The position numbers were made by a program, and so were the translations under genes. Below, piece after piece: positions 30,661 through 31,937 of a stretch of DNA of 64,000 nt. The stretch is from Escherichia phage MiataMamis: the sequence record PP925834.1; one strand, given 5' to 3'. Below the pieces are notes generated by a model that did no database searches, was not told the DNA's origin, and saw only the letters and a list, made by a program, of their open reading frames with translations. The first letter of the stretch is position 1. Each line of letters starts with the position of its first letter.

Positions 30661-30688
30661 TTGACATTCTTGCCTATCCTGATAAAAT
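30661..30688 (+). promoter_or_regulatory. extended -10 promoter reading into ORF-free region
   Basis: TTGACA-N16-TGaTAAAAT; no downstream protein ORF on plus strand. Confidence 0.45.
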
Positions 30689-31937
30689 TAAGTTCTTCTC
30701 TTTTCTTTTACCGAGTAATTCGGGTTTTCTGTTCTCTTCGGTTTGAAGGGGTATGGAGATACACCTGAGTGAACAGGGTGAACAACCGAACCATTGGCTA
30801 TGGCATTAGCATGGCGAAGCGGACGGGTGACGAAAGAGGGGCCGGAGGACACCAGTCACTGCCATATGATATATGGGTGATAACCTGAAGAGTCTGAATA
30901 AGTGTTTAAGTACCAGTCAGAGGAAAAGGTGAATGGTAGCCGAAGGGGAGGGGGGTTACCTGCTTCTGTAAACATGCATCTGAAATACTACTTTAGATAA
31001 CCTGAACCTACCTTTCTGACAAATATTCCCTATTAAACTTGAATTATTTATAGAAAATACCACAACACTACTTAAGTCTTTGATTTTACACACAAACCCT
31101 GCAGATATTCACCCTCCATATTTAACATACTTGTAACATATTCCATACTCTACCTGCCCGATCAATTCACCCAACTACATCCCCATATTTTCCCTGTCTG
31201 TACTACCCCTGCCCCGCCGGGAGTCCCGTCATATCTGGCTTTCCAGCAAATATCACACCCACAAATATCATTGCCTGAAGAGGGTTTCATCCCATAGTAC
31301 ATGCCTTACCTGAAGAGCGCTTCCTATACCCCGTAAATTTTTTAATTGACACCCTCCCCGCCGCCGGAGGGGGTTGGCTTTTCCCACACAGACCTGAAGA
31401 GCCAGCCAGAAATATCTGAACAGGTCCAGTTATACCACGATTTTGTGCTTGTCCTACAGGAGTGCTTCCCTGTCAGGAGCCGGTAGCGACTGGAGTGCTG
31501 CCAGGCGGACGAAATGGGAATCATTCTCATTCTTATAACAATTCTCAAATATCGAGGCAGTGGGGCAAATTAATAGGTGAGGCCGTTCACACAATGGCAT
31601 AACATTTGCAACCTATCTTGGGGGAGTGAATGAGAATACCTATCATTGCGAGAATAGTTATCATTACGGGCAATTTAACATAATACCCATTATGCGCACC
31701 ACTGGCGATATATACAGGGGTTAATAACATGGTGGACTGTTTACGCACATTACAATTGCATTACTTATTATTTGTGTGGGATATAGTTAGCCACCAACAG
31801 ATTACATAATAACCTGCAGACTTCCAGCCGTCCAGACGTCTAAGCGCCCACACAACAAGGATTATACATACACTACTGAATGTAAACAGGGCCACAAAGA
31901 GACTACCATACAAGATTGTAAATTTTTCATGCAGCAC

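Follow-up and report, generated by a model that had tools for sequence, protein, structure and literature searches.

An orphan promoter and the near-invariant gene-free bases behind it probably form a functional RNA or replication-control element in the non-coding gap of rV5-like coliphages

Introduction

What does a lytic coliphage keep in 2.55 kb of DNA that hold no gene? The question is raised by Escherichia phage MiataMamis (PP925834.1), an rV5-like coliphage of the genus Vequintavirus, of which a stretch of 64,000 nucleotides (nt) was analyzed here (the window, to which all coordinates refer). Phages related to rV5 are widely used as candidates both in biocontrol and in therapy directed at pathogenic E. 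coli. In the window, two convergent gene blocks are separated by a gap free of open reading frames (ORFs) at 30534-33083, in the left part of which an initial annotation, made from the sequence, had flagged a promoter reading into a gene-free stretch that it put at about 700 nt and that measures in fact 2.55 kb. In the rV5 genome paper the region is drawn as a grey "non-coding" box with no function assigned, and a guanine-cytosine (GC) skew switch was reported at 104425-105475 of that genome, within the gap (PMC3606486). About 2% of an rV5-like genome, gene-free, has carried no label other than "non-coding" since 2013, and an intolerance to insertions reported in 2025 came without a mechanism. 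When the 1.7 kb around the promoter were used as a query, 121 phage records matched at 80-99% identity, nearly all of them Escherichia Vequintavirus (rV5, FV3, FFH2, LL12 and the BASEL phages among them).

The intolerance was seen in a transposon-insertion sequencing preprint on phage Bas54, in which a saturated library yielded no insertions in a gap of ~2 kb (bioRxiv 10.1101/2025.11.20.689424). Bas54 is MaxBurger, and the genes that flank its gap, bas54_0134 and bas54_0135, are homologs of the genes of 139 and 71 amino acids (aa) that flank the gap in our window; the alignment of the two gaps runs over their whole length at 88.9% identity, and both contain all five non-coding copies of a 9-mer, CCTGAAGAG, that is discussed below. 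The window gap holds 225 TA target sites. Because the gap is free of transposon insertions in Bas54 and laden with repeats, a free-standing RNA is no more likely than a cis-acting DNA or replication role. That the gap exists and is indispensable has been reported before; what we add here, and did not find described in the literature searched, is the promoter, the near-invariant element that follows it (island A), the G-tract at the edge of this element, a Rho-type tract, the 9-mer, and the architecture of the repeats in the remainder of the gap.

Results

The orphan promoter and island A

The last gene of the plus-strand block (30318-30533; 71 aa, homolog of rV5 gp158) is followed, 128 nt further on, by a sigma-70-type promoter with an extended -10 on the plus strand (30661-30688), made of TTGACA at 30661-30666, a 16-nt spacer, TG at 30680-30681 and TAAAAT at 30683-30688 (TGaTAAAAT), with 11 of 12 matches to the consensus hexamers and a transcription start expected at ~30694-30696. 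The promoter was read correctly in the initial annotation. Over 29500-33600 it ties for best site with P164, a promoter annotated in the rV5 RefSeq record, where the orphan promoter itself has no annotation. Conservation was assessed by aligning 28340-33720 of the window (5.4 kb) with 14 Vequintavirus loci, for a total of 15 genomes, and by counting segregating sites per segment. Both promoter hexamers are invariant in the 15 genomes, and the sole two changes lie within the spacer.

Promoter and island A together (30661-30957) are the least variable segment of this alignment, with 9 segregating sites in 297 positions (3.0%), whereas the five flanking genes have 269 in 1374, or 15-26% per gene. 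Island A (30695-30957, plus strand) is a near-invariant element of ~263 nt, 59% purine, with a G content of 0.32 and a C content of 0.17 in all 15 genomes, and its diversity is 0-0.028. Conservation starts at the -35 box, preceded by ~50 nt already well conserved, and the 3' edge of the island is a G-tract, GGGGAGGGGGG (30945-30955; G4AG6), whose length is polymorphic among isolates (G4-7 A G5-6). Close to the promoter, a terminator-like scan picked up a small, invariant hairpin, CCGAG-TAA-TTCGG (30711-30723, plus strand), followed by GTTTTCTGTT, which could possibly be an attenuator, a pause site or a 5' stabilizer. The promoter and the ~263 near-invariant, gene-free bases behind it are probably a functional RNA or a replication-control element of an undescribed kind.

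Other signals surround the promoter. A perfect 8-bp inverted repeat, CATGACTG-N17-CAGTCATG (30625-30657), ends 3 nt before the -35 box in a nearly invariant region, and looks like an operator; it contains a (G)CATGAC(T) word that recurs across the gap, where 5 of the 11 window copies of GCATGAC are found. Two further extended -10 promoters of a quality equal to that of the orphan one, at 29837-29865 (plus strand) and 33550-33578 (minus strand), each stand before small early genes, and the minus-strand one is P164.

Predicted fold of island A and search for relatives

Folded as plus-strand RNA, positions 30695-30965 reach -86.3 kcal/mol, with a z-score of -2.07 against shuffled sequences, while the minus strand gives a z-score of -0.90. 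In the predicted fold, a 5' pyrimidine tract pairs with GAAAGAGGGG (~30835-30844), closing a domain of 147 nt. To the 15 phages we added one IMG/VR contig and four metagenome contigs, and these 20 sequences differ at just 11 columns from the start site to the G-tract. Variable columns number 3 among the 168 that are paired in the plus-strand consensus fold and 8 among the 82 that are unpaired (Fisher one-sided p 0.007), a figure to be read with the caveat that the fold is predicted from the same sequences and that the changes are few and phylogenetically linked. Two of the three changes in paired columns preserve pairing (G-U to A-U, C-G to U-G). On the minus-strand fold, 5 of the 11 variable columns are paired, with no loop bias. 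That variable sites spare the predicted helices is suggestive, although not proof, of island A acting as a structured plus-strand RNA.

Some candidate structures were dropped along the way. A stem, GGUAGCC/GGUUACC, that forms around the G-tract in this window is lacking in most relatives, and a CsrA-type GGA hairpin at 30752-30763 is undone by a natural G-to-A variant that abolishes the GGA. The word CUGAAGA, which could have pointed to a hammerhead, has neither GAAA nor helix III context in the sequence and no Rfam match.

The initial annotation had thought of one of the large structured RNAs of phages. This idea found no backing in Rfam 15, which gave no match at gathering score in the whole window; relaxing the search to E<=10 over 30400-33200 produced five weak matches, all of them at 32231-33137 and none in 30534-31500, and the weak suhB/mmgR match (E 0.12) is merely the terminator hairpin at 33046-33065. 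ARAGORN found no tRNA or tmRNA gene in the window. As to proteins, the absence of an ORF downstream of the promoter held up, as the longest ORF between 30533 and 33084 does not exceed 68 aa, and the ORFs of the gap have no PHROGs or Pfam match, whereas the flanking genes of 70-139 aa all match PHROGs families at E values from 1e-21 to 1e-91. In the 15 genomes, the frame of the gap ORFs is kept solely where the DNA itself is invariant. An overlooked protein gene was rejected on these grounds, the ORFs being short, not conserved in frame and without a family. The known RNA or missed gene that would have undone the annotation's proposal was found by none of the four scans (ARAGORN, Rfam, PHROGs and Pfam) in the flagged stretch.

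Relatives of island A outside the genus were not detected by blastn at a sensitivity of ~65%, which returned Vequintavirus only. The island was not found in Septuagintavirus W70 or in Phapecoctavirus, neither of which has a comparable compositional layout in its ORF-free gaps, and the locus in Mydovirus lacks synteny. A search of IMG/VR returned a single contig, itself Vequintavirus, and a metagenome scan with a 17-mer gave mostly chance matches and only five real, near-identical ones. No host homolog was seen in 5,426 E. coli genomes, and the search for a paralog or an antisense target within the window turned up only chance 11-12-mers.

The linker, the C-rich tract and the 9-mer

Sequences diverge at once past the G-tract into two unrelated AT-rich haplotypes with indels, and this linker (30958-31030, plus strand) is hypervariable, with 35 segregating sites in 73 positions (48%). 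It is followed by a C-rich, G-poor tract that is predicted to be unstructured (31031-31350, plus strand; 22% segregating sites). The compositional skew described in the initial annotation, purine-rich and then C-rich and G-poor, was borne out: GC skew ranges from +0.24 to +0.33 within 30700-30999 and is -0.66 within 31000-31199, and the same composition is found in the 15 genomes, with C at 0.30 and G at 0.11 over 31020-31350 of the window and at 0.28-0.30 and 0.09-0.11, respectively, across the alignment. The C/G ratio reaches 4.0-5.7 in 78-nt windows over 31020-31220, and every genome shows such a ratio along these 200 nt. Taken as one 696-nt unit, 30695-31390 folds worse than its shuffles (z +2.39). 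The promoter-driven non-coding transcript proposed by the initial annotation stands in part. An invariant promoter, 263 conserved nt and a strand-specific fold support it well at the sequence level, but only its first ~263 nt are under strong constraint; the 700 nt as one unit do not hold together, as a hypervariable linker and then a moderately conserved C-rich tract follow, and the whole is less structured than shuffled sequence.

The C-rich tract is untranslated, C-rich, G-poor and weakly structured over at least 80 nt, which is the composition of a Rho-dependent terminator. Rho-loading sites are generally recognized by untranslated RNA that is C-rich, G-poor and unstructured, and on this signature 31031-31350 is a candidate Rho-loading (rut) region. 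We infer that the transcript from the orphan promoter, and read-through from the upstream operon, would end by Rho in 31000-31400, and not at the GC-rich hairpin at 31352. This hairpin, CCCTCC-N8-GGAGGG with a distant short T-tract (31352-31383, plus strand), had been proposed as the end of the transcript. It does exist, and passes a loose terminator scan, but its stem (31352-31371) is weak at -13.9 kcal/mol, it has only 4 consecutive T starting 5 nt past the stem, and in most relatives the stem is weakened or rearranged (-8.1 to -16.2 kcal/mol). A separate observation is that GGGGAGGG, within the G-tract (30945-30955), is exactly complementary to CCCTCCCC (31352-31359), the 5' arm of this putative terminator, 400 nt downstream; relatives with CCCCTGCCCC instead of CCCTCCCC retain the same G-tract, so that there is no covariation between the two.

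Another feature of this part of the gap is the 9-mer CCTGAAGAG, of which the window holds 9 copies versus 0.5 expected, a number that none of 100 shuffles reached, so that the enrichment is real with respect to shuffled sequence. The initial annotation had the five non-coding copies right, all of which are on the plus strand, and undercounted the coding ones, which are four and not two and encode in-frame Pro-Glu-Glu codons of ordinary genes. Among the non-coding copies, the first (30236-30244) lies in the 120 nt that separate the last two plus-strand genes and is conserved in related genomes; the second (30884-30892) is within island A, and its one natural variant, CCTGAAAAG, comes from a contig of a gut metagenome; the third (31274-31282) is invariant, whereas the 3 nt upstream of it vary; the fourth (31309-31317), 35 nt after the third, has one variant, in FV3; and the fifth (31393-31401) has one variant, in A51.2. 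Nearly every genome examined has these copies, and all five are present in 15 of the 19 related genomes checked, with no extended consensus around them. In the three copies of the C-rich tract, 2 of 27 positions are variable compared to a background of 22% (binomial p ~0.05), and the adjacent bases vary. The motif is real and specific to one strand, and it is probably under selection.

The remainder of the gap and its neighbors

To the right of the flagged stretch, iteron-like direct repeats are arrayed at 31973-32243 (plus strand), namely ACTRTTYAC six times at a period of 15-16 nt, TGACACAATAG 2.6 times and CATGACAATAAT 3.8 times. ACTRTTYAC occurs 11 times in the window versus 2.3 expected, with 8 occurrences in 31736-32585, all on the plus strand, and single iteron-like copies are found also at 30628, 31736 and 32577. 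The repeat zone at 31991-32235 has 56% segregating sites, with indels and changes in copy number between isolates. The repeats are followed by island B, an imperfect palindrome of 160 nt (32232-32392) with four AGGCAACTAT sites in alternating orientation, whose single-strand fold reaches -53.3 kcal/mol (z -9.84 against shuffles); 12 of the 205 positions in 32236-32440 segregate (5.9%), and in rV5 and A147 the palindrome contains an insertion of 33 nt. Next comes the stretch of lowest GC content of the locus (0.30-0.32; 32440-32700), a candidate unwinding region. Clustered, in-phase direct repeats beside an AT-rich stretch are arranged as in iteron origins, outside the coordinates flagged originally, and repeats, palindrome and AT-rich stretch together are in the layout that would be expected of an origin or of another large cis-acting assembly site. 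A direct repeat of a different kind, GAGAATAnnTATCATT, present twice at 31630-31665, corresponds to a 34-nt feature that the annotations of phages magaca and naswa list as "repeat_region", and is moderately conserved.

At the right edge of the gap, a strong intrinsic terminator (33046-33065, minus strand) found by the terminator scan closes the minus-strand gene block, whose bordering gene (33084-33503) encodes a 139-aa homolog of rV5 gp159. No intrinsic terminator was found downstream of the last plus-strand gene, either in the sequence or with the terminator-like scan. Between genes 163 and 164 of rV5, a bidirectional terminator was expected by the authors of the genome paper, who looked for it without success (PMC3606486).

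Some observations on the neighborhood deserve mention. The 139-aa protein is ~89% identical in Phapecoctavirus (locus L003, 5001-6975), which belongs to a different subfamily, and there, too, its gene borders an ORF-free gap, of 1.5 kb, with no DNA similarity to that of the window. On the left, at 28628-28933 (plus strand), lies the gene for a 101-aa phrog_639 "transcriptional regulator", whose protein identity is 100% across most of Vequintavirus and 42-58% for other genera of the Vequintavirinae, and whose homolog is labeled as a double-stranded DNA-binding protein in one record; this protein is a candidate reader of one of the motifs of the gap. At least 10 Vequintavirus records in GenBank have an end within the gap, in three independent cases at ~31928 of the window, and this could reflect a convention of their authors, an assembly break or a packaging signal. 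In addition, 19 UNVERIFIED and unannotated GenBank records of "Campylobacter phage" show 90-97% identity to this region of an E. coli phage, and are probably mislabeled or contaminant Vequintavirus genomes.

Discussion

The explanation that we favor, with a probability of about 0.4, is that promoter and island A would form a module producing an early host-polymerase transcript with a cis-acting role, that of a primer or activator inside a region that resembles an origin. Host RNA polymerase would fire the orphan promoter early in infection, giving a structured, G-rich RNA, and this RNA, or the act of transcription itself, would serve the phage replication origin in cis, as its priming or activating arm. 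The G-rich transcript and its terminal G-tract could favor a persistent RNA-DNA hybrid beside the AT-rich linker, and the iteron arrays, the palindrome and the AT-rich stretch to the right could be the protein-binding and unwinding modules. Untranslated transcripts that run on would enter the C-rich tract, where Rho would load and terminate them, with minor help at most from the hairpin at 31352, and CCTGAAGAG could be the recognition word for a phage protein, on DNA or on RNA. The orphan promoter does in fact point into a gap that holds the AT-rich linker, the iterons, the palindrome and the AT-rich stretch, as expected of a promoter that reads into an origin. This explanation is supported because the promoter is conserved, island A is the least variable segment, the constraint is specific to the plus strand, and there is no coding alternative, and furthermore because the homologous gap is essential, its surroundings are origin-like (the iterons, the palindrome with its z-score of -9.84, the lowest GC content and the rV5 GC-skew switch), and a Rho-type tract is present. 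In a bolder form, island A would be a new, Vequintavirus-specific class of phage RNA that is indispensable for lytic growth, whether as an origin primer and R-loop former or in trans, with CCTGAAGAG read by a dedicated phage protein; we advance this version tentatively, and with more doubt than confidence.

We acknowledge that several points weigh against a primer or activator in cis. No transcript, RNA end, R-loop or replication start mapped for rV5-like phages was found in the searchable literature, nor was a transcriptome, an origin or a packaging (pac) site mapping for Vequintavirus. The 263 near-invariant nt exceed what an R-loop or a promoter needs, and a folded trans-acting RNA or a dense protein-binding platform would fit them equally well. 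If Rho stops transcripts at 31000-31400, these would never reach the iterons 1 kb further, and the gap may consist of two functionally separate halves. The iterons lie in a hypervariable zone, and island B is wholly absent from the FV3 record. The transposon result covers the gap as a whole, in which about 17 TA sites fall in island A and about 38 in the linker plus the C-rich tract, and it shows neither which process fails nor whether the action is in cis or in trans. In large lytic phages origins are often redundant, and a single essential one would be unusual. Last, the alignment of homologs disclosed no compensatory change, as none of the 91 predicted pairs covaries among the 20 island A sequences; this is because the sequence hardly varies (11 columns in 20 sequences), and because no compensatory change exists the fold of island A remains a prediction.

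Alternatively, and as the main competing explanation, island A could be a free-standing, trans-acting structured RNA of ~260 nt, with its own early promoter and trimmed to a stable fold, that binds or titrates a host or phage factor such as a ribonuclease, an RNA chaperone, a polymerase or a defense protein, the rest of the gap being unrelated cis elements. We consider this rather unlikely, even if it would explain the freezing of every base better than a cis-acting primer does, since the whole transcribed length is near-invariant and variation falls in predicted loops. The folding signal is, moreover, specific to the plus strand, the 3' boundary of conservation is sharp at the G-tract, and the promoter is strong, dedicated and of the same class as the neighboring early promoters. 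On the other hand, the flagged stretch matches no Rfam family even at E<=10, there is no E. coli homolog hinting at mimicry and no extended complementarity within the window, no clear terminator is found at the 3' boundary of island A, and the zone free of insertions spans ~2 kb and not 0.3 kb; to our knowledge, no essential trans-acting RNA has been described in lytic coliphages. A missed small or split gene within island A would be another way to account for its conservation, the candidates being a 39-aa GTG ORF at 30769-30888 (plus strand), with a GGAG 10 nt before its GTG, and a 54-aa GTG ORF at 30688-30852 (minus strand). Both are intact in 15 of 15 genomes, but merely through the invariance of the DNA: third-position changes are 2 of 9 on the plus-strand frame, with no bias, and coding DNA would not have its synonymous sites frozen, as the 15-26% segregating sites of the neighboring genes indicate. 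Neither ORF has a PHROGs or Pfam match, while flanking genes of 70 aa all do, and an ORF at 30902-31000 is frameshifted by the length polymorphism of the G-tract. A protein product is, in our opinion, very improbable.

Two other explanations were considered. The C-rich tract and its neighbors could mainly be a Rho-dependent stop or buffer between the convergent blocks, catching read-through from the plus-strand operon, with a promoter that is incidental or regulatory and no dedicated RNA function. The last plus-strand gene has indeed no intrinsic terminator, in agreement with what the rV5 authors reported for genes 163 and 164, a C/G ratio of 4-5.7 with low structure is the Rho-loading signature, and the minus-strand block already has its strong terminator at 33046-33065. 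Such a buffer, however, would leave unexplained 297 bp with an orphan promoter that are far more conserved than coding DNA, the five-fold motif, the repeats and palindromes of the gap, and the lack of any tolerated insertion, and we regard it as quite unlikely. The region could also be a pac site, in which the small terminase would recognize the five same-orientation CCTGAAGAG words and start headful packaging. Short asymmetric repeat arrays are typical of the pac sites of P1 and SPP1, the region is essential, the gap contains the first or last base of at least 10 GenBank records for the genus, and PhageTerm reports for Vequintaviruses speak of headful or circularly permuted genomes. These reports, however, say just that, and no terminus is mapped here; the record starts are scattered over 2 kb and may be the choice of their authors, a pac site usually lies in or beside the small terminase gene, which in the rV5 gene layout is far away in the late block, and packaging needs neither a promoter nor 263 invariant nt. 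A packaging signal is thus hardly probable.

In practical terms, the gap is now resolved into parts, namely the promoter, the 263-nt element, the Rho-type tract with the five-fold 9-mer, the iterons and the palindrome, each open to mutation or cloning on its own. Should the module prime or activate replication, the origin of an entire phage genus would be defined, which would aid phage engineering and replicon design and explain why insertions cannot be placed at this locus. An RNA acting in trans would instead represent a new type of essential phage RNA, and if island A is indeed an indispensable RNA class, it would be the first non-coding RNA to be defined as essential in a large virulent coliphage.

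Comparison with known systems

We do not claim membership of this locus in any of the known origin families. Large phage RNAs such as GOLLD, ROOL and HEARO have in common with the gap that they are long non-coding stretches in phage genomes; here, however, there is no Rfam match at gathering score in the window and none at E<=10 in 30534-31500, and the constrained unit is only ~263 nt and confined to one genus. With Rho-dependent terminators the locus shares an untranslated tract of at least 200 nt, C-rich, G-poor and of low structure, past a promoter and a terminator-less operon, and as rut sites have no sequence consensus, the likeness of the C-rich tract is compositional only. Iteron origins (lambda ori, P1, plasmids) and pac sites (P1, SPP1) resemble the gap in their same-orientation direct repeats of 9-16 bp by an AT-rich stretch and palindromes, in a gene-free essential region. 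The array of MiataMamis differs from iteron origins in being hypervariable and ~1 kb outside the coordinates flagged originally, and the spacing of CCTGAAGAG is irregular (648, 390, 35 and 84 nt).

Precedents for origins primed from a promoter are ColE1 RNA II, the R-loops of T4 oriF and oriG, the primary origin of T7, and the G-tract of mitochondrial conserved sequence block II (CSB II) downstream of the light-strand promoter (LSP). In the LSP/CSB II system, as here, the conserved part of the transcript ends in two adjacent G-runs of polymorphic length (here G4-7 A G5-6) with a T/A-rich stretch after them, a likeness that is purely formal, the mitochondrial polymerase being different from that of the phage case. 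T4 oriF and oriG and the T7 primary origin likewise have a promoter followed by an easily unwound AT-rich stretch, the counterpart of which here would be the linker right after the G-tract, and our transcript, too, is proposed as a leading-strand primer. Those origins use phage-specific promoters (middle or T7), need only ~50-100 bp downstream, have no invariant transcribed block of 263 nt, and none of them is known to be individually essential. With regard to ColE1 RNA II, we found no sequence or Rfam similarity, no antisense promoter of the RNA I type and no identifiable RNase H processing site, and the locus sits in a lytic phage of 137 kb that encodes its own replication proteins. ColE1 nonetheless offers a parallel in several respects, with a sigma-70 promoter some hundred nt before the origin, a conserved non-coding transcript predicted to be structured, a G-rich RNA that could hybridize to a C-rich template, and an element that, in ColE1, is essential in cis.

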